A stretch of 64,000 nt of DNA, from the NCBI GenBank assembly GCA_000004695.1, contig CM000154.2:2304001-2368000 (forward strand), written 5' to 3'. A program made the translations under genes and the position numbers. The notes under the pieces are model-generated. The model was not told where the DNA came from, did not search any database, and saw only the letters and a list, made by a program, of their open reading frames with translations. Positions 15,654 to 35,014 of this stretch are shown here, in pieces; within the stretch, counting starts at the first letter, position 1, and each line of letters starts with the position of its first letter. Origin of the DNA: Dictyostelium discoideum (Eukaryota).

Positions 15654-17010
15654 TATTTATGTTTTTATATAATATATTTATTATTTTTATATTTATAGTT
15701 TAGTTTTGTTTTTTTTTTTTTTGTTGTTGTTGTTGCTTTTGTTGTTGTTGTTATTGTTATTGTTGTGTTTTGTTTATTAATTTTGTGTGTAGGAAATTAT
15801 AATGATTTTTTAAATATATATATATTAATGACCATATATTTTTAAAAAAATATTATAATTATTTTTATTATTATTATTATTACTGTTTAACTACTATACA
15901 TAAAATATAACATATAAATACACAATAAATGATATTGTGCTATGGCGATTGGTTTGTAGGTGTTGATGTTGGTGTTGATATTAGTGTTGGTGTTGTTTTC
16001 TTATTGACTATTGTTATTTTTTATTATGATTTTTTATTTTTATTTTTTTTTTTTTTACTAATTTAACAAATTAACTTCTAAAATTTTTAAATTTTTAAAT
16101 TTTTTTTTTTTTTTTTTTTTTAATTTAAAATTATTAGTATTATTAATAAAATAATAATAATAATAAAAAAACAATCCCTTCTTTAAGTAGTTTGTGTTTG
16201 TGTGTGAGTGTGAATATGATGTTATTGTTGTTTAATTAATTATTATTTTAATTTTTGTTGTTTTGTGTGTCTGCACCCTTATTAATAAAAATAAAAATAA
16301 AAATAAAAATAAAAATAAAAATAAAAAAAAAAAAAATTTAAAATTTTTTTTTTTTTTTTTTTTTTGTTTTTTTTATTTTTTTTTATTTTTTTTTTTTATT
16401 TTTTTAAATTTTTTTTTTTTTTTTATTAAATATTTTATACTCATATATGGAAGTAAAATTTAAAACATCCACAATTGTGGTTTTGATAAAAACAAAATTT
16501 TAAAAAAAAAAAAAAAAAAATTAAAACAAAGAAATTTTCGTAAGAATCTGATAATCAGATCTATTTTTTATTTTTATTTTTTTTTTAAAAAATGATGGAA
16601 TTGAAGTTTTAACTTTATTTTATAAAAAAAATAAAATAATAATAAATAAAAAAAAAAAAAAATAAATAATATTAAATAATTAAATAATAGTCATAGTATA
16701 AAAAAAAAACTTCCAAAAAAAAAAAAAAAAAAATTTTTTTTTAAACATTTACTGGAAACTGATGGTCATATTCCAATGATTGCAATCACTCAAATATAAA
16801 CAATGTTAAGAAATTAATAATTAAATTTATGGAATTTAATCCTTTTATTCAACAACAGCAACAACAAATCCTACTACTACAACAACAACGATAGGATGAC
16901 AGCAGAAACCACAGCAACGAATTATTTATCAATTAATGAATAGATTTCCAAATTTTGTTTGAATATCAAAAATGAGAAGGAGCTATTTTCCAAAAAAAAA
17001 CATAAAAAGT

Positions 17011-17083
17011 GCCTGGATGGCTCAGTAGGCAGAGCGAGCGGCTGTTAACCGCTAGGTCCATGGTTCGATCCCATGTCTAGGCG
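17011..17083 (+). tRNA. tRNA-Asn (anticodon GTT)
   Basis: Cloverleaf readable by eye: acceptor stem GCCTGGA/TCTAGGC (one G-U pair); D arm GCTCAGTAGGCAGAGC; anticodon stem AGCGG/CCGCT with loop CT-GTT-AA; T arm CATGG-TTCGATC-CCATG; discriminator G. A box TGGCTCAGTAGG at 17018..17029 and B box GGTTCGATCC at 17062..17071. Confidence 0.9.
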
Positions 17084-17087
17084 ATAA

Positions 17088-17102
17088 TTTTTTGGTTTTT
17101 TT
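17088..17102 (+). terminator. RNA polymerase III terminator (T6 GG T7) just 3' of tRNA-Asn
   Basis: Oligo-T tract beginning 5 nt after the tRNA 3' end. Confidence 0.7.
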
Positions 17103-17160
17103 AAATTATATAGAAAAAGGATCTAACAAAAGAAAGAAACATATCAGTATCCGTTCAACA

Positions 17161-17217
17161 AAAAAAACCGCACCGCGATCAAGAGGATAAAAAAACCGCA
17201 CCGCGATCAAGAGGATA
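17161..17217 (+). repeat. Tandem duplication of a ~28-bp unit (AAAAAACCGCACCGCGATCAAGAGGATA x2) at the 5' end of the retroelement
   Basis: Two adjacent near-identical copies seen directly in the sequence, within the 5' UTR/promoter module of the element. Confidence 0.8.
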
Positions 17218-17359
17218 CAAGATACACGTGAAAAGTAATTCATCCTTTTCTATCCTTAATCTCGGTCAATTTTAACCAATCTTTCAAAAAAAATCACCAA
17301 TCCACCACGATCTACAGATCTAATTTACCAAATCGCCGATTCAAAGGAATCCCATCGAG

Positions 17360-18081
17360 ATGAATTCCTACGCAGACGCGGCTAAAATGGCCAACCCCTC
17401 CACCCATATGGACGAGGCATCAGAGAACTTCATTAAGGAATTCTCCACAAAAACAGCAGAGATAAAGGAGACCTACCCCAAATTATCAATAGGCCTCAAA
17501 GACATCTCCAAATACTGCGAGACCATATTGAACATGACTGCTCTCTCAACCTACGAGAAAAACAACGGATTCTACCCAATTACACTCGAATTCCCCAAAA
17601 TGGATCTCATGGGGTTAGAAGAAATGAGAAAAACACTCTCAAACTACGATATCCCAATCGACAAGATATACATAGGCAAAGGAACTAGAAAAACGATCCA
17701 CCTGATGATTAAAAACGAACAATCTCTCCTAAATATCATTAGAGATAGAAGCAAATTGGGAACCTTCATCACCTCCAGTAGAGACTACCACGTCCTCACA
17801 GGAAGAGTAAGAATTCCAAGAGAAAAGGCAGGAATAGTGGATGCCCTCATCAAAACTGCCTTTGCAGAAGAAATACCCTATGCAATATACCATACTATAT
17901 ACTCCACCGACCACCTCCTAGTATTCGGTCTAATAGAATGCAAAATAGGCGATCAAATGAAATCTGGCCAACACAATACAGAAATCGCCAACTTTACCAT
18001 CAGAACGGCCACCAAAACCTACTCCTCACAAAAGAAAAATAAGAAAGTAGAGTCAAACAACACGGAAGAACCATTAGAAGA
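17360..18081 (+). CDS. Retroelement ORF1 (3' end lost in assembly gap)
   Basis: MNSYADAAKMANPSTHMDEASENFIKEFSTKTAEIKETYPKLSIGLKDISKYCETILNMTAL...; stop-free to the N-run. The apparent continuation past the gap in the ORF track is a frame coincidence. Confidence 0.6.
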
Positions 18082-18181
18082 NNNNNNNNNNNNNNNNNNN
18101 NNNNNNNNNNNNNNNNNNNNNNNNNNNNNNNNNNNNNNNNNNNNNNNNNNNNNNNNNNNNNNNNNNNNNNNNNNNNNNNNN
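18082..18181. other. Assembly gap (100 N) inside the retroelement
   Basis: Run of exactly 100 N. Gap of unknown true size; the ORF2 apurinic-endonuclease domain expected N-terminal to the RT is missing and presumably lies here. Confidence 0.95.
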
Positions 18182-18182
18182 A

Positions 18183-20270
18183 TTCTACAAGTACCACATC
18201 AACTCAATAGCAAGAATATTGACTATAGCTTTCAACGACCTCCTCACAAATAAGAAAGAAATCCCCACAAAATTCAAAGAAGGAGTAATAACAACAATAT
18301 TCAAAAAAGGAGATGAACTAAACATTTCAAATAGAAGACCAATCACCCTTCTCAATACAGATTACAAAATTTTAAGCAAAATTCTCAACAGTAGATTATT
18401 AGATATCACCAGTAAAATTATCAACAAATTTCAAAACGGCTTTGTTCCAAACAGGTTCATCCAAGACAATATTCAGATCATGAAGGAAGTAATAGAAATA
18501 AGTAACAAAAGAAAGAACAATACACTCATTACCTTTTACGATTTTAACAAAGCATTCGATTCAATCAGCCACAAGAGTATCACAAGAACATTAGAGCATA
18601 TTGGTATCCCCCCAAAATTCACAGCGATCCTACTAAACCTACTCAAAGATACTAAAAACAAAATAAAGATCAACGACTTTTTAGTCAATGGAATAACAAT
18701 CAGAAGAGGAACAAAACAAGGAGACCCAATATCACCAACAATCTTTGCTCTAGTTTTAGAACCACTTCTAATAGATATCATCAATGATAATACAATCAAA
18801 GGCTTCACTCTACCAAATTCCAAATCATTAAAACTCACTGCATTTGCTGACGACATAGCAACATTTACAAACTCCACTGAAGAACTAATGAAAATTAATA
18901 CTAAAATCCAAAAGTACTGCTCAGCAACATCATCATCGTTAAACAAAGAGAAAACAGTAATGATAGCAATAGGAGATAAACCACACGATCTACCATTCCA
19001 AGAGAGTACAGTCCCAGAAAGATATCTTGGCCTCAATTTCACCAAAACAGGTTTAAATTCAAAATACAACACTTTAATCCAAGAAATGAAAAACAATCTA
19101 ATCAAATGGAAATCACAAGCAATAACGATGAAGGCAAAGATGACAATTCTCAAAACATACGTTCTATCCAAATTAACATACCATCAATACATGGATAATC
19201 TAAATGAAGAACAAATTGAGGAAATCAATAACATGACCAGATGGTTCTTATTCTCCTCAGTTAAGAATACATATACAGAAGAGAGAAAATACAAAACTAT
19301 GATGAAAATAGACAGAGCATATGCAGATTGGAAAGAAGGAGGCATAAAATTATGGGATATAGAACTAAGACATATAGCATTCAAAATCTGGTACATGAAC
19401 AGGCTACTCCATAACAACTACAACAACAACAACAATACCTTACAAGAATGGTACATGGAGCAATTAAGTAGAAAAAAAGCCCACACTTCAACCCTCAACG
19501 ATATGTGCAGACACTGGGGTGTATTCAGAGTCAAATTTTACCAAAACCATCCAAAGATAAATGAACTTCCAGACTGTATAAGAAACGACAATGACGAACC
19601 ACTAAAACTGAAAGAAATTTACGAACTCATGATCAAAGACAGACACCCAACACCAAGAAGAACAGAATGGCAGAAGTTATGGGCGGTGAGATACAACACA
19701 GCAATACACAAAGTATTCATAAACATCAACAGCATTTCTCACCAAAAAGGTAGAAACACCCTCTTCAGATTCTTCTCAAGATCACTTCCAGGTATCAACC
19801 ACGAAAGAGACACCAGATGCAAGATCTGTGGCCACCTATTCAGAGACCCTTATTCTCACCTCTTCACTCTATGCCAAGATATCCTAGATATTGAAAAAAC
19901 CATCATATCAACAGTTAACAAATTATCATTCATCAAAATCCACAGATGGTCAATGGATACCTTAGACATATCAAAATACAACAGAACTGAGAGAATCTTC
20001 CCCAATCTCATAGGAATAATAGCACACCAATTATGGAAGATAATCTGTCACAAATTGTTCAACACTGATGAAAGCAAACCAGAGCCAAAATTCGAACAAA
20101 AGGTCATAGAAACAGAATTACTAAATCTCATCGAAACTGAAAAATTCATCACACTAAAGAAAATCAAACACGACGAAGCAATACTAAAAAACACCAATCA
20201 AGATCTTCACAAATACAAATTCAACAAAGCCTGGCAAACCCCAGCAGCTCCGAACCCTCTTCCAATTTAA
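18183..20270 (+). CDS. Retroelement ORF2, reverse transcriptase plus C-terminal Zn-knuckle-like region; 5' partial (open from the gap)
   Basis: Frame is open from the first base after the gap (FYKYHINSIARILTIAFNDLLTNKKEIPTKFKEGVITTIFKKGDELNISNRRPITLLNTDYKILSKILNSRL...). The ORF track's M at 18219 is actually a TTG codon. RT boxes as listed above; ends TAA at 20268..20270, immediately before the poly(A). Confidence 0.8.
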   Translation, partial: FYKYHINSIARILTIAFNDLLTNKKEIPTKFKEGVITTIFKKGDELNISNRRPITLLNTDYKILSKILNSRLLDITSKIINKFQNGFVPNRFIQDNIQIMKEVIEISNKRKNNTLITFYDFNKAFDSISHKSITRTLEHIGIPPKFTAILLNLLKDTKNKIKINDFLVNGITIRRGTKQGDPISPTIFALVLEPLLIDIINDNTIKGFTLPNSKSLKLTAFADDIATFTNSTEELMKINTKIQKYCSATSSSLNKEKTVMIAIGDKPHDLPFQESTVPERYLGLNFTKTGLNSKYNTLIQEMKNNLIKWKSQAITMKAKMTILKTYVLSKLTYHQYMDNLNEEQIEEINNMTRWFLFSSVKNTYTEERKYKTMMKIDRAYADWKEGGIKLWDIELRHIAFKIWYMNRLLHNNYNNNNNTLQEWYMEQLSRKKAHTSTLNDMCRHWGVFRVKFYQNHPKINELPDCIRNDNDEPLKLKEIYELMIKDRHPTPRRTEWQKLWAVRYNTAIHKVFININSISHQKGRNTLFRFFSRSLPGINHERDTRCKICGHLFRDPYSHLFTLCQDILDIEKTIISTVNKLSFIKIHRWSMDTLDISKYNRTERIFPNLIGIIAHQLWKIICHKLFNTDESKPEPKFEQKVIETELLNLIETEKFITLKKIKHDEAILKNTNQDLHKYKFNKAWQTPAAPNPLPI

Positions 20271-26779: not shown

Positions 26780-27579
26780 TTAATAAATCACTCCTTCTTT
26801 CTAAAATTTTTTTTTTTTTTTAATTTTTTTATTATTATTATTATTATTACTATAGATTTAATAAAACTAGAAAAGATTTTAATAGTTTAGTTGAATATAA
26901 TAATTTTTTAGAAATGGTAGAGGATTTAATATTTGATGCGATTGAAGGAGGAGATTTAGCAACAGCATCAGAATTAAAATTAAAAGAATATCAAAAAGCG
27001 AATCAAGCATCAATTGCAACTAATAAGAAAGCAAAAGAAGAAGAGGATACATTAATAGCATCAAGAATTGCAGATGAACAAAGATTAATTGCAGAGAAAA
27101 GGAATAAATTTTTAGCTGAAGATCAAAAAGAACAAAATTCAAAGAAATTAGAGAGTCAAAAAGCAATGGATGATTTAGCAAAAGGTAAAATTAGTGCAAA
27201 AGAATTAAAAGAAATCGATAAAAAGAAAGCTGCAGCCTCTGCTGCTAAATTGGCCGCTGCTGCAGCTGCCGCTTCAATGGTAAATGAACCATTACCACCA
27301 ATTCATGAAACTGATAATAAACAATCATTCACATACCAACCACAAAATAAACAACAGCAACAGCAACAACAACAAGGACCAACAAATCAACAATTACAAC
27401 AACAACAACAAGTACTTTTACAAATGCAATTTAATGAACCTCAGCCATTGGGTGAATTCAAATATGATGAAATGGCACTTAAAAATCTAATACCAACACC
27501 TCAACAATCCGATGTTGCTGGTTTTAAACAAAAATATATTAGACAAAGAGCTTTTGAAGAAGCTTTTCAATATTTATAA
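26339..27579 (+). CDS. CDK-activating kinase assembly factor MAT1 (MNAT1 homologue; RING finger + MAT1 core); exons 26339..26436, 26525..26680, 26856..27579
   Basis: MNIYDDDQCIKCNSGLYLNPNMRLLTSPCGHK|YCESCVQLAYMKDSVIQCLGCTAQIRKQSFMNQRYDDTGLEKENSIRKKYLK|EFNKTRKDFNSLVEYNNFLEMVEDLIFD... is collinear with human MAT1 ([34 protein letters not shown]...[64 protein letters not shown]). Intron phases 2 and 2; 325 aa. Intron 2 carries an (ATA)n microsatellite at 26687..26776. Confidence 0.85.
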
Positions 27580-27737
27580 ATAAAATTAATTATAAAGAAA
27601 AAAACAAAATGAATAATTAAATAATCGATATGAATTTATTTTTGATTTTATTTTATTTTTGTAAATTTTTTTTTTTTTTTTTTTCTTAAAATATCGTAAT
27701 ACAAATGCTTGGGGGATTTTAGATATTTTTTTTTTTT

Positions 27738-29097
27738 TTAAAGTTTTGAAGATAATAATGGGAAATCTTCAACAACAGTTCTACGAAGATCATTAATTTG
27801 ATGTTTAGATTGTGGAGATTTTTTATATTTTGATAATCTTTCAGCCAATTCTTTTAAGAGACCATCTTTATCTTGATATGGTGGTAAGAGTTGAAGATAT
27901 TCTTCTGGAGCTGGTTTTCTTCTTTGATTTTGTTGTTTTTGTGGTTTTTTATTTGAATTGGTTGAACGAGTAGTTCTCTTACCAACTACTTCTTCGAGTC
28001 TCTTTCTTTCGACGACTTTCATTTGTTCGAATAATTGAATGCTATTACTTAAGATTTCCATTGAACAAGATTCATAAAAGTTTAATTTACCCTCTTCAAA
28101 CATCTTTTCAGAGAACCAACCCATACGTTGGAGGAATTGATTCTTTTTGATACACATTTCTGGTTGAATTGAAAAGAGTGTTAAAATACCTGCCATGTAA
28201 CCCTCAATTAATGGATAGAAAAGATTTGCATAGAAACCACAAGCACCTTCACTCTTTACACCATAACAAGATGTGGTGCCACTAACCTCTTTACTAATGA
28301 TACCTCTTGAAACCATACGATTAATCTCTTTAAGAATAAATTCATCAGTATCATAACCTGGTTGATTAACAAATTCTTGTGATAAAACTTTTGCTAAAAA
28401 TCTAACTTCAGTAATTAAAGTTTCTTGATCAACTGAATTTAAATTTAATGTGGTGGTTGTTGTTGTTGAAACATTATTTGTATTAATAGTTGATTGTTGT
28501 ACTGCTGCTGCTGCTGGTTGTTCAATTGTTGATCTTGATTGTAAAATTGATAAAATTACTAAAGATACTAAACCATCCCAAAGGAATAAATGTAATAATT
28601 GATTTCTATAGAAATTTAAAACTAAAATATTCTTTCTATAGTTCTTATTGGTTACACCCAATTGAGCAGAACCAGGTTCATACATATTTCTACGTTTTGA
28701 AACTAAATTACTCAAGAGTTTAAGTGAATGATCAACTAAAGCATCGGAAGGACCCTCGAAAGCTACATCACCACCACGTGCGAAAATTTCTTCACGTATC
28801 CATTCAACCTTTGAAATTAACTCTTCACGATTAATACCACGACGGAATGATAAAAGAATGGTAGCAACAGCTGATGTAGTTGTAATAATAGCTGATTTAT
28901 TTAAATCTCTAACTACTTGATAACCAAGATCTTGAATTAATAAACGACGATCATCATCATTATTAAATGGATCAAAGTATGTACCAATTGAACGAGTATC
29001 TGGTTTACTAATTTGAGTTTCAAAATCACCTTCACTAATATTTGCACTATTTGTATTAACAACTGGTTTAATTATATTTGATTGTTCATCACTATTT

Positions 29098-29129
<32 letters not shown>

Positions 29130-30707
29130 TGTACTGGTATTATTACTATTTGTATTGTTATTGTTATTATTATTATTATTAATATTATATGATAATGGAT
29201 TTAAACGACGTAATGATGAAATTTCATTTGATTTATCTTCAGAATATTGTTTAATTGAAATTGGTGGAGTGAAAACAACATTAATTCTACCGAAATTCAT
29301 TTTTAAAACTTTTGAAGCACGTAATAAACCATTGAATGACTCTTTGGTTTTACTTTCACCCATCATTTCATTTGAGTAGAGTTCACCTTCTAATACCTTT
29401 TCATAGGAGATACCAATTGGTACGATATGGACATCTTGAACACGATTTTCAAAGAATGGTTGACAAACCATTGAAAGTAAACCCATCTTTGGATGTAATG
29501 ATTTACCAGTACGTGATCTTTTACCTTCGATAAAGAATTCCATTGGTTGATTATCAATGACCAATCTTTGAACATATTCGGAAAAGATAGCCCAATACAA
29601 TGAATCACCATGGAAAGTTCTACGAAGGAAGAAAGCACCAGCATTTCTAAAGAACCAACGAACGATGATGATTGATAAAAAGTCTTCACCTGCTGCAATA
29701 TGTGGTAATGGTAAATTGTATTCAAAGAAGATGTAAGAGATGATTAAGAAATCAATGTAAGAACGATGAGTTGGTATCAAGACCACTGGTGATTTCTTGA
29801 TGGCTTCACGAATGAGTTCAATACCTTTCTCGTCAACGTGGATTCCTTGATAGATTTTTCTCCAAACTTTCTTTAAGAACCAACCTAAAACTCTGACAAC
29901 TGAAACGTTGAGATTCGATTGCATTCTCTCCATGATTTGATTGGCACGCTTCTCAATCTCTGACACCAACACTCCCTCCTCACGGGAGACCTTCTCCATA
30001 GCTTGTTGAACACGTGGTGAATTCATAACCAATGAACGAATTTCAGTGGGTGCTCTTGGTGGTAATGGAGTTTGTGTTACATGACGATAGGATGTCGATG
30101 CCCAACTAATATCAGCAAATACCCATTGGAAGAAACCACTTTGGTTCACATCGGATTTGGTGATGATTGAGGTATTCAATAACTCGGTTGGTGGACGAAC
30201 TCCCTCCTCTTTCATAACGTATTTATGTAAACCAAAACAAAAGTAACAAAAGTATGATTGCCAATTGATCTCTGCTGCATCACAATTGTATTTAACTCTA
30301 TCTTCGCCATCCAATAGATCTTGATATACCTTTTCCAATGCTGTCACTGAAAATACCCATTCATGAGCTGTGAAATGTTTAAATGTATCACAAATTAATC
30401 TTGCTGCTCTTGTCATCTTTTTGAATCCTTCTGCTTTAGTCTTTGTATCTTCACTACCTGTCAATGTTGATAACACTTGTAACAATGCACTTGGTACACC
30501 ATATCTCATAAAGAAATGAGCTTCATACATAACTGTACTACTATGGAATGAAAATTGTGATCTTGCAATTGATTTCTTTGGTGTATGATTTCTCCAATAT
30601 TCTGTAACATAATGTGAAATTCTATTCCATGCAACTGGATTTCTATGACTAGTACCAATCTAGATTTAATTAAAAAAAAAAAAATTATTTAAATGTTAGA
30701 ATTATTA

Positions 30708-30738
<31 letters not shown>

Positions 30739-31669
30739 TTATTTTACTTACTTGATGAATTTTTAAAACATTTTGATTACCAATTGCAACAGCAGAAGCA
30801 ATTAAAGCATTAGCAACATGATCAACTGGTACGATATCAGCAACCATACGACCATCACCTTTCATAAATTGAACGAGACCAACACCACAATAGAGCATAA
30901 CGGCACCAATAGCAGCAACAGAATCAACCCAACCTGGTACTGGTTCTTTGAGTGAACCACCAACAATGGTTGGACGTAAGAAACACATTGGGATATCACC
31001 ACGTTTTAAGGCGAGGATACGTTCGGTGATAGCTTTGGTGAAAGTGTATGTATTTGGATAGGCACCCAAGAGATTTGGTGTTATACGCTCCAATGTCTGA
31101 ATATCTTGTTTCATAATTAAATCTACCATCTCCTCTGGATTGAAATCTAGTACTGGTAACTCTTCATCTAACCAACCTTCACGATTTGAATTAACGTATG
31201 CTGTTGAACAATGTACATATGCAACTACATTCTTTAAACGTTTAGATAGGTCCAACATATTCAATGACGCATAGAGATTCGATGAGATGGCCTTATCTAA
31301 ACGTTCACGGAAATCAATAGATGCTGCACAATGAATGATTACATTTACTTGGTCAACAACTGTTTGATAATCTTCACTTGATAACCCTAATCCCTCCTTA
31401 GACAAATCTCCACCAATTGCTACAACCTTGTTGTGAATATGGGCGTTGAATGCTGCCTCGCCCATTTTTGCCTTGCAAGTATCCCAAATACGTGATTGCA
31501 ATATGTCCTCTTCAAATCTCTCCTTTGCATTACCACGAATGATGATATAGATTTTTTCAATATCTGGTAAATCTCTTACCATCTTTTCTAATAATACTTT
31601 TCCAACAAATCCTGTTGCACCTGTAATTAATACTGTTTTACCAGCATAAAAATTTGCTAATACTACCAT
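27738..31669 (-). CDS. Bifunctional fusion protein: N-terminal fatty acyl-CoA reductase (FAR, NAD(P)-binding) fused to C-terminal dihydroxyacetone-phosphate/glycerol-3-phosphate acyltransferase (DHAPAT/GNPAT-like); exons 31669..30752 and 30659..27738 (1279 aa)
   Basis: Exon 1: MVVLANFYAGKTVLITGATGFVGKVLLEKMVRDLPDIEKIYIIIRGN... (FAR Rossmann motif TGxTGFxGK). Donor GTAAGT after ...VLKIHQ. Exon 2 continues the FAR C-terminal region (IGTSHRNPVAWNRISHYVTEYW...), then the acyltransferase HxxxxD box VLIPTHRSYIDFLIISYI and FIEGKRSRTGK, a poly-Asn/Thr linker, and a C-terminal ...SKL (candidate PTS1 peroxisomal signal). Splice phase 0/0. Confidence 0.85.
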
Positions 31670-32858
31670 TTTTTTTTTTTTTTTCTTTTTTCTGATTTCT
31701 TTTCAAAAAAGGTATAAAAAATAATTTATTTATTTATTTATTATTACACAAAAAAAAAAAAAAAAAGGAAAAATTTTACTAAAGAAAAAAAAATAACACA
31801 ACAATATATTAATTAATTGATGGTGATGATTTCTTTGTGTAAAATTTTTAATGTTAGTTGCAACGGAAAAAAAAAAAAAAAAAAAAATAAAAATAAAAAA
31901 AAAAATTCAGTCGAAGATTTTTTTTTTTTTTTTCAAAAATACTTAAATTTTATTTTTATTTTTAATTTTAATTTTTTTTTTTTTTTTTTGACTCTTAACT
32001 TAAGGGCAACATTGGGAAATCACTCAAAAAGGAAAAATAATGACGCAATGGTTTTTTTTTTTTTTTTTTTTATTTTATTTATTTTTAAATTAAATTATTT
32101 TTATTTTTAATAATTATTGAACTGTTTAAAAAAAAATATAATTTTTTTTTTTTTTGCTGGTTAATAAAATATTTTGGTTTTTTTTTTTTTTATTATCCAA
32201 AACAGAAAAAAAAAATTATTTCCAATTTACCAAAATCTATTTTTAATTTAGATATACCTAGCGGTAGTATCTCAAATTTTGTATTAATCCCATATTCCAT
32301 AGAACAGATGTATAAAATAAAAAAAATAAAAAAATTTAATACCACATAAAAAATTTATTACAATTCGTCTGATTTTTATTATTAACTTATATAGTAATTT
32401 TTTGGCCAATATAAAAATAGGGGAGATAATATAACAATAATAATAAATTGAATCTGAACAACATGCATGTCTAATTTTTAAATCTGGTTCTAAATCATTA
32501 ACGAGTGGACCATATTGACCAATGATTTCTTCTGATGATGTTGTTGTTGATAATGTTAATCCTTCAATATCTTTTTTTAAATTTAATGATAATTCAACTG
32601 TAGTAATGAAATTATAATCCATGGATTATAATTTCTTTTTCCCTAAAATATATATATGTATATACATTAATAAATATCGAATTTATTATAAAATTAAAAT
32701 TAAAAATAATTATAATGAGTAATTACCTTTGATTAAATAATAAATTTTTTGCTCTTTTTACATAATATAAAAATTGCCATTATTTGATAAATAAATTCCA
32801 TTTTTCTTTACATTAGATCTTTGTTAAACTCTTCTCATATATGCATCTTTTTTTTATA

Positions 32859-33170: not shown

Positions 33171-33395
33171 ATGCTTTCATTCAAATTCGCCAAATCTGCC
33201 TCAAAGGTTATTGGAAATAGAAATTTCCACTCAAGTTCTGCTTCTTTAGCAAATGTAAGTATATATTTTATTATTATTATTTTTTTTGCATTTTGCATTT
33301 TGCATTTTGTATTTTTTTTTATTTCTATAAATAAATAAAAAATACAATCAACAAGAATATTAATATGTTTTTTTAAATCTCTTAATAAATATTAC

Positions 33396-33475: not shown

Positions 33476-35014
33476 AAATAATATTATTATTCAATTTTTT
33501 TTTTTAAATAGACAACTAAATTATTTATTAATGGTAAATTTGTTGAATCAAAAACTAAAGAATGGCTCGAAGTTAGAAATCCAGCCACTCAAGAACTTGT
33601 AACTAAAGTACCAGTTTCAACTAAAGAAGAGATGGAGGCCGCAGTTAAAGCAGCATCAGATGCTTTCCCAGCATGGAGAGATACATCAGTTTCAAACAGA
33701 TCAAGAATCATTAGCAACTATAAGAATTTAATCAATAAAAATATGGATAAAATTGCAGCAATCATTACAGAAGAACAAGGTAAAACCCTCCCAGACGCAA
33801 AGGGTGATGTTTTCAGAGGTTTAGAAGTTGTTGAACATTCAGTCAATGTTGCATCATTAATGATGGGTGAAACCGTTGAAAATGTTTCAAAGAATGTCGA
33901 TATCTATTCATACGTTCAACCATTAGGTGTTTGTGCAGGTATCACTCCATTCAATTTCCCAGCAATGATTCCATTATGGATGTTCCCATTAGCAATTGCA
34001 TGTGGTAACACTTTTGTTTTGAAACCATCAGAACGTGTACCATCAGCATCCATGTTTTTAGTTCAACTCGCACAAGAAGCTGGTGTACCAGATGGTGTTG
34101 TCAATGTTATTCATGGTGGTAAAGAAGCTGTAAACTTTATTTGTGATGCTCCAGAAGTTAGAGCCATCTCATTCGTTGGTGCCGATCAAGCTGGTCGTCA
34201 TATTCACGCTCGTGGTACTGCCAATGGTAAACGTGTACAATCTAACATGGCTGCTAAAAATCACGCCACCATCGTCCCAGATGCCCATAAAGAACGTACT
34301 TTAGATGCATTGACTGGTGCTGCTTTTGGTGCCTCTGGTCAACGTTGTATGGCTTTAAGTGCTGCTGTATTCGTTGGTGAATCTAAAAATTGGATTCCAG
34401 AATTAGCTGAACGTGCCAAGAAATTAAAGGTTGCAGGTGGTGCTGCACCAGGTGCTGATTTAGGTCCAGTGATTTCAGCAGCCTCAAAACAAAGAATTCA
34501 CGAACTCATTCAATCTGGTATTGATGAAGGTGCCAAATGTATTTTAGATGGTCGTAACGTTGTCGTTGATCCAGAATTTTCAAAGGGTAACTTTGTTGGT
34601 CCAACCATTCTCACTGATGTCAAACCACATATGAGATGTTACAAAGAGGAAATCTTTGGTCCAGTTTTAGTTTGTCTCAATGTTGATACTGTCGATCAAG
34701 CCATTCAACTCATCAATGCTAACCCATACGGTAATGGTACTGCTGTCTTCACCTCATCTGGTGCTGTCGCTCGTAAATATCAACGTGAAATCGATGTTGG
34801 TCAAGTTGGTATCAATTTACCAATCCCAGTTCCACTTCCATTCTTCTCCTTCACTGGTTCTCGTGGTTCTTTTGTTGGTGCTGGTCACTTCTACGGTAAG
34901 ACTGGTGTTCAATTCTTTACTCAAATTAAAACAATCACTTCAAACTGGAGAGATGATGATATTTCACACGGTGTTTCTTCATCAATGAATATGCCAATTT
35001 TAGGTAAAAATTAA
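33171..35014 (+). CDS. Methylmalonate-semialdehyde dehydrogenase (ALDH6 family), mitochondrial; exons 33171..33254 and 33512..35014
   Basis: Exon 1 [28 protein letters not shown] is a presequence-like start (donor GTAAGT). Exon 2: [60 protein letters not shown]...[39 protein letters not shown]...catalytic [12 protein letters not shown]...EEIFGPVL. Length 528 aa, close to mammalian ALDH6A1. Confidence 0.85.

Follow-up and report, generated by a model that had tools for sequence, protein, structure and literature searches.

The question raised by this locus is whether a single gene of Dictyostelium discoideum specifies a fatty acyl-CoA reductase (FAR) and a DHAP acyltransferase (DHAPAT) on one polypeptide, as claimed in an earlier note for positions 27738-31669 of the window (the whole 64,000-nucleotide stretch of DNA analyzed here), and, if so, which part this polypeptide plays in lipid synthesis.

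Identity and structure of fatA

The locus is the D. discoideum gene fatA (DDB_G0289081; dictyBase DDB0305750), whose product FARAT has already been published and characterized experimentally (Kappelt et al. 2020, Biol Open; PMC7375469). In an exact-sequence look-up, the protein encoded in the window was identical at every residue to DDB_G0289081 of D. discoideum AX4 (XP_636393.1; UniProt Q54I12). All five published fatA primers that were tested (1023, 1024, 1118, 1050, and 1198) map to the window uniquely and exactly. Primers 1023/1167 match exactly at 31635..31669, the start of fatA, and primers 1024/1168 at 27738..27773, its end; the 1118-1050 amplicon in the window comprises 3332 bp, equal to the diagnostic amplicon of PMC7375469. 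The published gene, with two exons (E1 and E2) and a protein of 1279 aa composed of FAR, AT, two poly-N blocks and SKL, agrees with the window without any difference; it is one and the same gene. The statement of the earlier note that such a covalent fusion is known from Dictyostelium work was thus correct, and its assignment of the span to a single FAR-DHAPAT gene is borne out by the Pfam domains, the identity to DDB_G0289081 and the published work. Since the biology of FARAT has been published already, the locus opens no new question. Despite the published name and function, the NCBI title of XP_636393.1 is still “hypothetical protein”, and UniRef lists the protein as [quoted passage not shown].

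The two exons of fatA are located on the minus strand (31669..27738; Table 1), and the spliced product of 1279 aa ends in LSSKL. The span had been given exactly, position 31669 being the A of the ATG and 27738 the third base of the stop codon TAA. Splicing of the sole intron restores the frame and yields the database protein exactly; an intron-retained product, which would meet a stop 9 codons in and comprise 315 aa, truncated inside the FAR fold, was rejected. The earlier note described a phase-0 GTAAGT intron correctly, but had located it at the boundary between FAR and acyltransferase; it actually interrupts the FAR half, between the NAD_binding_4 (aa 15-288) and Sterile (aa 360-457) domains. 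Three AATAAA hexamers 81-98 nt beyond the stop codon are putative poly(A) signals.

Table 1 Features of fatA and its 3' flank (positions in the window)
Feature	Position	Strand	Description
Exon 1	30752..31669	-	918 nt, codons 1-306, ATG from 31669; Rossmann/NAD_binding_4 part of FAR half; from ORF list and translation
NAD(P)H-binding motif TGATGFVGK	31598..31624	-	aa 16-24, verified by translation
Reductase active-site motif YxxxK (YTFTK)	31034..31048	-	aa 208-212
Intron (sole)	30660..30751	-	92 nt, phase 0, GTAAGT...TAG, 6.5% GC; codons 306/307
Exon 2	27738..30659	-	2922 nt, codons 307-1279 and TAA stop (27738..27740); FAR C-terminal domain, joint, acyltransferase, poly-Asn insert, GPAT_C, PTS1
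FAR C-terminal “Sterile” domain (PF03015)	30207..30500	-	aa 360-457, Pfam E=2.4e-17, 63.3 bits (cut-off 35.4)
FAR/acyltransferase joint	29811..30206	-	aa 458-589, uninterrupted coding sequence within exon 2
Acyltransferase domain (PF01553)	29406..29810	-	aa 590-724, Pfam E=1.1e-24
Block I HRSYID	29751..29768	-	within PTHRSYIDFLI, aa 602-612
Block II GAFFLRR	29619..29639	-	aa 647-653
Block III FIEGKRSRTGK	29502..29534	-	aa 682-692
Block IV IVPIGISYE	29400..29426	-	aa 718-726
Poly-Asn low-complexity insert	29088..29189	-	aa 797-830, two runs of 9-10 Asn, between acyltransferase and GPAT_C
GPAT_C region (PF19277)	28005..28970	-	aa 870-1191, Pfam E=5.2e-66
SKL tripeptide (PTS1)	27741..27749	-	C-terminal, aa 1277-1279
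3' flank	27580..27737	-	158 nt separating the stop codons of fatA and a convergent MAT1-like ORF; 12.7% GC

The ten largest neighbouring ORFs, in a Pfam scan of single-exon ORFs of at least 150 aa, contained MAT1, ALDH, FNIP repeats, reverse transcriptase, PP4R3, TIG, F-box, and an ion channel with EF-hands, and none of these ten was AGPS- or PEDS1-like, as would be expected of an ether-lipid gene cluster; such clusters have been reported for myxobacteria and some fungi. The divergent ALDH gene (33632..35014, plus strand) was considered as a FARAT-linked fatty-aldehyde dehydrogenase and rejected; its product is methylmalonate-semialdehyde dehydrogenase (PDB 9izu, E=1.4e-200), an enzyme of valine catabolism.

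The two enzyme halves and the peroxisomal signal

Pfam recognized NAD_binding_4 (PF07993), Sterile, Acyltransferase and GPAT_C in the 1279-aa protein, all with scores far above the curated cut-offs; besides the three families which the earlier note proposed to search for, the protein thus contains GPAT_C. The N-terminal half combines NAD_binding_4 (E=8.6e-64) and Sterile with the GxxGxxG and YxxxK motifs of a FAR. Among 17 diverse fused homologues, in which the FAR half is 37-64% identical, the residues T16, G17, T19, G20, F21, G23, and K24 are invariant, as are the GxxGxxG motif, S155, Y208, and K212; in the plant FAR 7eoz, whose structure is solved, YTFTK has TYVFTK as its aligned counterpart. 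The alignment with 7eoz (E=1.1e-45) reaches aa 461 of FARAT. A complete FAR with TGATGFVGK is therefore present, as previously noted, but it extends to about aa 460 rather than occupying the N-terminal 400 aa.

In the C-terminal half, the three acyltransferase boxes described before (PTHRSYIDFLI, the FxxR box GAFFLRR and the EGxR box FIEGKRSRTGK) were all located, and blocks I-IV (HxxxxD, GxxFxxR, FxEGxRSRxGK, and (I/V)PxxIxY) align with those of GPAT1. H604, D609, G647, F650, R653, E684, G685, R687, S688, R689, P720, I723, and Y725 are invariant in the 17 homologues. The closest solved relatives of this half are GPAT1 8e4y (1.3e-61) and, next to it, a PlsB-type GPAT (7.8e-48).

The poly-Asn insert, described as poly-N blocks in PMC7375469, is specific to the Dictyostelium lineage, with 87% gaps at this position in non-dictyostelid homologues, and is the chief source of length variation between Dictyostelium strains and species. 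Tagged FARAT was reported to be partly degraded, possibly behind the poly-N region (PMC7375469), and hence some of the cellular FARAT pool may be cleaved. The C-terminal SKL, predicted as a PTS1 from LSSKL and found in the translation, is invariant in seven of seven Dictyostelium gene models, and most fused homologues possess a PTS1-type end. Localization to peroxisomes is experimental: GFP-FARAT co-localizes with RFP-SKL (PMC7375469).

Role in ether-lipid synthesis and alternative readings

We consider it very probable (about 0.97) that a single fatA mRNA gives rise to a soluble FARAT of 145.5 kDa, which is imported into the peroxisome lumen by means of SKL and, combining FAR and DHAPAT, initiates the synthesis of ether lipids and plasmalogens in Dictyostelium. 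The FAR half would reduce acyl-CoA with NADPH to a fatty alcohol, while the GNPAT/GPAT-type half with its HxxxxD motif would form acyl-DHAP from DHAP and acyl-CoA; alkyl-DHAP synthase (AGPS) would then exchange the acyl chain of acyl-DHAP for the FAR-made fatty alcohol. With both activities on one chain, a single polypeptide would therefore supply both substrates for the ether bond, and channelling between the halves may occur. The fatA knockout keeps 13% of the ether storage lipid MDG, with TAG unchanged and PE/PI reduced, and is rescued by GFP-FARAT as well as FARAT-GFP-SKL (PMC7375469). Evidence contrary to this explanation was not met in the present analysis.

If the fusion were an artefact of the gene model, adjacent FAR and acyltransferase genes would be transcribed separately and the long ORF would merely read through. 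The probability of this is close to nil, and the idea is effectively refuted by the published cDNA, from which primers at the start and stop codons amplified the whole fatA ORF (PMC7375469). As the joint lies within the uninterrupted exon 2, the fusion is independent of any splice. Sterile and Acyltransferase both reside in the 973-codon open frame of this exon, which would arise by chance with a probability of about 1e-40 at the base composition of the window (P(stop) = 0.090 per codon). Moreover, the joint is the GC-richest part of fatA (42%), as compared to a GC content of 13-16% for true intergenic DNA of this region, and so does not resemble an AT-rich, promoter-like gap in front of a separate acyltransferase gene. 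It is nearly gap-free (0-3% gaps) and 41-57% identical in the 17 diverse fusions, and the four Pfam domains of FARAT occur together on one chain in about 75 independent protein clusters. GFP-FARAT of approximately 170 kDa (PMC7375469), for which a mass of 145.5 + 27 = 172.5 kDa is predicted, likewise places both halves in one frame, one mRNA and one polypeptide. The cDNA across the junction suggested by the earlier note was thus already available, its primers being exact at 31669 and 27738, and a transcript end after the FAR part with a separate acyltransferase promoter, which that note named as the refuting outcome, is contradicted by the full-length cDNA, the shared exon and the GC content of the joint.

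A genuine fusion might instead contain a glycerol-3-phosphate (G3P) acyltransferase for ester lipids. This is suggested by GPAT1 and PlsB-type GPAT being the best solved relatives, by the match of the C-terminal region to GPAT_C, and by the original identification of fatA as the Dictyostelium gene that best matched mammalian GPAT1/2, with 26% identity (PMC7375469). No GNPAT structure was found among the PDB matches to FARAT; since the solved proteins nearest to it acylate G3P, the acceptor specificity is judged from genetics. In the knockout, however, TAG is normal, whereas the ether lipid MDG is lost and the ether-rich PE/PI are reduced, and TAG is accounted for by a separate GPAT of the ER (PMC7375469). 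FARAT shares the peroxisome lumen with AGPS, some homologues are named glycerone-phosphate O-acyltransferase/fatty acyl-CoA reductase in the source databases, and in PMC13012113 the acyltransferase half is grouped with homologues of GNPAT. A role in ester lipids is thus very improbable, and the lipid phenotype points to DHAP rather than G3P as acyl acceptor.

It is very improbable, too, that the FAR half has degenerated into an extension without catalytic activity and that the fatty alcohol is provided by another enzyme. For the N-terminal extension of trypanosomatid DHAPAT, such a degenerate state was long assumed. Because 13% of MDG is left in the fatA knockout (PMC7375469), there is a further supply of alcohol or alkyl chains. 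Nevertheless, the invariance of GxxGxxG, S155 and Y208/K212, the identity among the fused FAR halves, and the strong matches to NAD_binding_4 and 7eoz argue for a functional reductase, and a functional FAR domain has been reported for the Tetrahymena orthologue (Dittrich-Domergue 2014; cited in both PMC7375469 and PMC13012113). Judging from the conserved residues and this orthologue, as it is cited there, the Dictyostelium FAR half is probably catalytically active.

Most of the joint represents the N-terminal portion of the GPAT-type fold; only about 33 aa (462-494) match neither parent, and alignments resume at aa 495 for the PlsB-type 9vuq and at aa 511 for GPAT1 8e4y. The segment of aa ~441-600 has a fixed length and is nearly gap-free and 41-57% conserved. 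Tentatively, though the odds are against it, this segment might be a structural interface which couples both active sites, for instance by one common acyl-CoA pool or by direct hand-over of acyl-DHAP and fatty alcohol to peroxisomal AGPS, rather than a passive tether. Such an interface, if real, would account for the retention of the fusion in most non-animal lineages.

Comparison with other FAR and acyltransferase systems

The FAR-acyltransferase fusion is widespread outside animals. The fusion itself, the catalytic residues and the PTS1-type end are conserved in dictyostelids, Physarum, Planoprotostelium, ciliates, oomycetes, and others; the homologues of Paramecium and Stentor, for example, share the four Pfam domains at 37-38% identity. 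A close known counterpart is TtFARAT of Tetrahymena thermophila, which according to PMC7375469 and PMC13012113 likewise is one bifunctional peroxisomal protein with N-terminal FAR and C-terminal DHAPAT, but is shorter (1,140 aa) and has no poly-Asn insert. For both enzyme activities of TtFARAT, reported from yeast expression, PMC7375469 and PMC13012113 cite Dittrich-Domergue et al. (2014, J Biol Chem), whereas Dictyostelium FARAT was studied by knockout and localization in its own cells (PMC7375469).

Myxobacterial FAR-GNPAT fusions such as MXAN_1675 of Myxococcus xanthus (PMC13012113) also join an N-terminal reductase module to an acyltransferase. Bacterial matches of about 900 aa, one of them named Cystobacter sp., contain PF07993 and PF01553 (E ~1e-64 to 1e-74). 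They differ from FARAT in sharing ~27-37% identity over only part of the query, in lacking a PTS1, and in having neither Sterile nor GPAT_C in the precomputed Pfam lists. Human mitochondrial GPAT1 (PDB 8e4y/8e50) aligns with FARAT in blocks I-IV and in the C-terminal region (second stretch, aa 874-1016); unlike FARAT, it acylates glycerol-3-phosphate and is a mitochondrial membrane protein devoid of a FAR domain and a PTS1.

Animal FAR1/FAR2 and GNPAT (DHAPAT) catalyze the same two reactions with the same domain families, in a peroxisomal pathway feeding AGPS, but are separate genes and polypeptides. Animal FAR1 is located at the cytosolic side of the peroxisomal membrane, from where it can move to lipid droplets, whereas FARAT of Dictyostelium lies in the lumen and does not relocate to droplets (PMC7375469, PMC13012113). 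FARAT has been described as the usual state outside Metazoa, and it has been argued that the fused form is ancestral in eukaryotes, the separation of FAR and GNPAT in animals being a derived state that arose by secondary fission (PMC13012113).

Structure of fatA and the joint between the two enzymes

The gene fatA (minus strand) has two exons, and conceptual splicing joins them in phase 0 to a product of 1279 aa, FARAT, which unites a fatty-acyl-CoA reductase (FAR) half and a DHAP acyltransferase half; if the intron is read through, a stop follows after nine codons. An earlier note, made from the sequence alone, had placed a FAR/DHAP acyltransferase fusion with C-terminal SKL at 27738-31669. 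ORF translation and splicing gave exactly these coordinates, and the spliced ORF reproduced both the length and the SKL end. At the base composition of the window (23% G+C, containing long homopolymers and ORFs rich in Asn/Gln) a stop is expected about every 11 codons, and the chance probability of a 973-codon open frame is about 1e-40. Across 27.8-31.7 kb G+C stays at the coding level of 30-43%, dipping only in the intron and in a poly-Asn tract; in the flanks it decreases to 11-20%.

A Pfam search of the protein detected four families, all well over the curated cut-offs: the three that the earlier note had named for a search, and GPAT_C. In comparisons with solved structures, the reductase half matched a plant fatty acyl-CoA reductase (7eoz; 1.1e-45, aa 4-461), and the acyltransferase half matched human GPAT1 (8e4y; 1.3e-61, aa 511-793 and 874-1016) and a PlsB-type GPAT (9vuq; 7.8e-48, from aa 495). 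Only about 33 residues (aa 462-494) have neither parent in these PDB alignments. All motifs quoted previously are intact; YxxxK of the reductase and block IV of the acyltransferase were found besides.

Features of the fatA region, in window nucleotides or FARAT residues (aa)
Feature	Position	Strand	Remarks
fatA exon 1	31669..30752	-	ATG at 31669; 306 codons; ends ...KIHQ
fatA intron	30751..30660	-	92 nt; GTAAGT...TAG; 6.5% G+C; phase 0
fatA exon 2	30659..27741, TAA 27738..27740	-	973-codon open frame; ends ...PLLSSKL
NAD_binding_4	aa 15-288		Pfam E=8.6e-64
Sterile (FAR C-terminal domain)	aa 360-457		Pfam E=2.4e-17
Acyltransferase	aa 590-724		Pfam E=1.1e-24
GPAT_C	aa 870-1191		Pfam E=5.2e-66
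TGATGFVGK	aa 16-24		FAR half
YTFTK (YxxxK)	aa 208-212		FAR half
HRSYID	aa 604-609		acyltransferase half
GAFFLRR	aa 647-653		acyltransferase half
FIEGKRSRTGK	aa 682-692		acyltransferase half
IVPIGISYE (block IV)	aa 718-726		acyltransferase half
Primers 1023/1167	31635..31669		match
Primers 1024/1168	27738..27773		match
Primer 1118	31012..31033		match, exon 1
Primer 1050	27702..27722		match, downstream of fatA
Primer 1198	31990..32014		match, upstream of fatA
MAT1-like ORF	26914..27579	+	downstream, convergent with fatA; Pfam 3.2e-07, profile positions 50-187 only
Aldehyde dehydrogenase gene	33632..35014	+	upstream, divergent from fatA; AT-rich spacer of ~1.5-2 kb
tRNA-Asn(GTT) gene	17010..17084	+	
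Two ORFs, 297 aa and 683 aa	17360..20270	+	~275 nt downstream of tRNA-Asn(GTT), same strand
ORF, 1060 aa	22836..26018	-	no Pfam match at E <= 0.001
ORF, 514 aa	38795..40339	-	no Pfam match at E <= 0.001

The fusion is confirmed as an observation and supported in its interpretation, with two anatomical corrections. The phase-0 GTAAGT intron is real but does not mark the enzyme boundary; its place is codon 306/307, inside the FAR half, where NAD_binding_4 lies before it and the FAR C-terminal domain after it. The FAR part, taken to be 400 aa long, reaches about aa 460. The joint (aa ~458-589, window 29811..30206) lies within uninterrupted exon 2 and, at 42% G+C, is the richest G+C stretch of fatA. 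Since the FAR C-terminal domain and the acyltransferase share one continuous ORF, the fusion is independent of any splice prediction; a cDNA over 30600..30800, as formerly proposed, covers the exon junction and not the enzyme fusion.

Identity with a known gene and role in ether-lipid synthesis

Exact-sequence look-up showed the product to be identical over its whole length to D. discoideum AX4 DDB_G0289081 (EAL62890.1 / XP_636393.1 / UniRef100_Q54I12). Its 90% cluster holds another six gene models from Dictyostelium (1256-1282 aa), 95-99% identical and all ending in SKL, whose lengths vary mainly in low-complexity tracts. The locus is a gene already known and characterised: the protein was named FARAT, and the gene fatA (dictyBase DDB0305750), by Kappelt et al. 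2020, Biol Open (PMC7375469). Primers from that study were mapped on the window, where the 1118-1050 product measures 3332 bp, the wild-type size published (PMC7375469). Public annotation of DDB_G0289081 is behind this literature of 2020, with "hypothetical protein" still at NCBI and [quoted passage not shown] as UniRef title.

The entire coding sequence was obtained from cDNA with start and stop primers (PMC7375469), hence one mRNA covers both halves; together with the single ORF seen here, this full-length cDNA establishes a single-gene fusion, and the published data contradict a transcript ending after the FAR part, which the earlier note had named as refuting evidence. GFP-FARAT migrates at ~170 kDa (PMC7375469); the calculated masses are 145.5 kDa for FARAT and 172.5 kDa with GFP. 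Both GFP-FARAT and FARAT-GFP-SKL overlapped fully with RFP-SKL peroxisomes, and neither relocates to lipid droplets (PMC7375469). Two independent fatA knockouts had normal triacylglycerol, but monoalkyl-diacylglycerol, the ether storage lipid, fell to 13%, PE and PI were lowered and phagocytosis was strongly impaired; both tagged fusions rescued the defects (PMC7375469). FARAT has thus been demonstrated to be one mRNA and one polypeptide, peroxisomal and genetically required for ether lipids (PMC7375469). In a 2026 study from this field its place is in the peroxisome, upstream of alkyl-DHAP synthase (AGPS) and the alkyl-DHAP reductases (PMC13256971).

On the account with the strongest support, FARAT enters the peroxisome lumen by way of its SKL; there the acyltransferase half would form acyl-DHAP from acyl-CoA and DHAP, and the FAR half would turn acyl-CoA into a fatty alcohol, for which AGPS swaps the acyl chain. 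The phenotype of the knockouts and a distinct GPAT in the ER suggest DHAP, not G3P, as acceptor. Conservation, and the Tetrahymena orthologue as cited in PMC7375469 and PMC13012113, argue for an active FAR half in Dictyostelium; the two sites may also be coupled.

Neighbouring genes

Pfam scans of the largest neighbouring ORFs revealed no further ether-lipid gene near fatA. Fatty aldehydes are relevant to the ether-lipid pathway, and the divergent gene at 33632..35014 was considered as a fatty-aldehyde dehydrogenase; its match to the solved human-type MMSDH (9izu, E=1.4e-200) shows a methylmalonate-semialdehyde dehydrogenase, which is therefore unrelated. Probable upstream exons of this gene lie near 33200..33255 and from 33512, and GTAAGT at 33255/33256 with AG at 33510/33511 suggests an intron ahead of the main ORF.

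MAT1 is the CDK-activating kinase assembly factor, for which a RING-finger N-terminus is expected; that of the MAT1-like gene is presumably on an upstream exon. Its ORF has a Gln-rich tract near the C-terminus, and in the 158 nt between its stop and that of fatA the hexamer AATAAA occurs three times on the strand of fatA. The 683-aa ORF behind the tRNA gene carries a reverse-transcriptase domain (RVT_1, 1e-36); the layout of 17010..20270 is in line with the non-LTR retrotransposons targeted to tRNA genes that are known in Dictyostelium, putatively the TRE family.

Conservation and distribution of the fusion

With FARAT as query, a homology search found 184 proteins at E <= 1e-20. In each of the best ~75 clusters (E <= 1e-138), NAD_binding_4, Sterile, Acyltransferase and GPAT_C are joined in one chain of ~900-1450 aa. 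Named sources are dictyostelids (D. purpureum, Heterostelium, Acytostelium, Tieghemostelium, Cavenderia), Physarum and Planoprotostelium, the ciliates Paramecium and Stentor, oomycetes (Aphanomyces, Thraustotheca, Lagenidium, Pythium) and the dinoflagellate Durusdinium. Bacterial matches come next, as shorter (~900 aa) NAD_binding_4 and Acyltransferase fusions, one named Cystobacter sp. At the C-terminus, most of the eukaryotic fusions have a tripeptide of the peroxisomal PTS1 type (SKL, AKL, ARL, SRL or AKM); others form a group with PKL. This group comprises ~20 clusters (e.g. P0034, P0043-P0053, P0069) of ~1120-1140 aa whose PKL/PKI ends are not canonical [SAC][KRH][LM]; one member is named Paramecium octaurelia. 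The FARAT orthologue of Cavenderia fasciculata, DFA_05553 (P0014), is annotated at 1806 aa; it has SET and ankyrin Pfam domains in addition and the C-terminus GNNLKE, without a PTS1-type end. This is more likely the result of merged gene models than a genuine three-way fusion.

When 17 diverse fusions were aligned, the joint (aa 441-600) showed 0-3% gaps and 41-57% identity to the query. Invariant catalytic residues are G17/G20/G23/K24, S155, Y208 and K212 in the FAR half, and H604, D609, G647, F650, R653, E684-R689, P720, I723 and Y725 in the acyltransferase half; the poly-Asn insert (aa ~797-870) is missing in 87% of the other aligned sequences.

The oomycete proteins (Aphanomyces euteiches, Thraustotheca clavata, Lagenidium giganteum, [Pythium] brassicae) are 37-39% identical to Dictyostelium FARAT, and that of Durusdinium trenchii (P0079) 35%; P0056, P0058, P0065, P0068 and P0079, from these two groups, have the PTS1-like ends SKL/AKL/SKM/AKM/ARI. 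FARAT is known from Amoebozoa, where it was previously described only in D. discoideum, and from Discoba, Filasterea, Ciliophora and myxobacteria, Ciliophora being the sole Diaphoretickes group (PMC13012113, PNAS 2026). The main text of that paper makes no mention of oomycetes or stramenopiles, and compared with it the oomycete and dinoflagellate source names may indicate a taxon-sampling gap bearing on its HGT scenario. The paper argues for the fusion as the ancestral state and for the split genes of animals as derived, and the conservation of the fusion found here agrees with PMC13012113.
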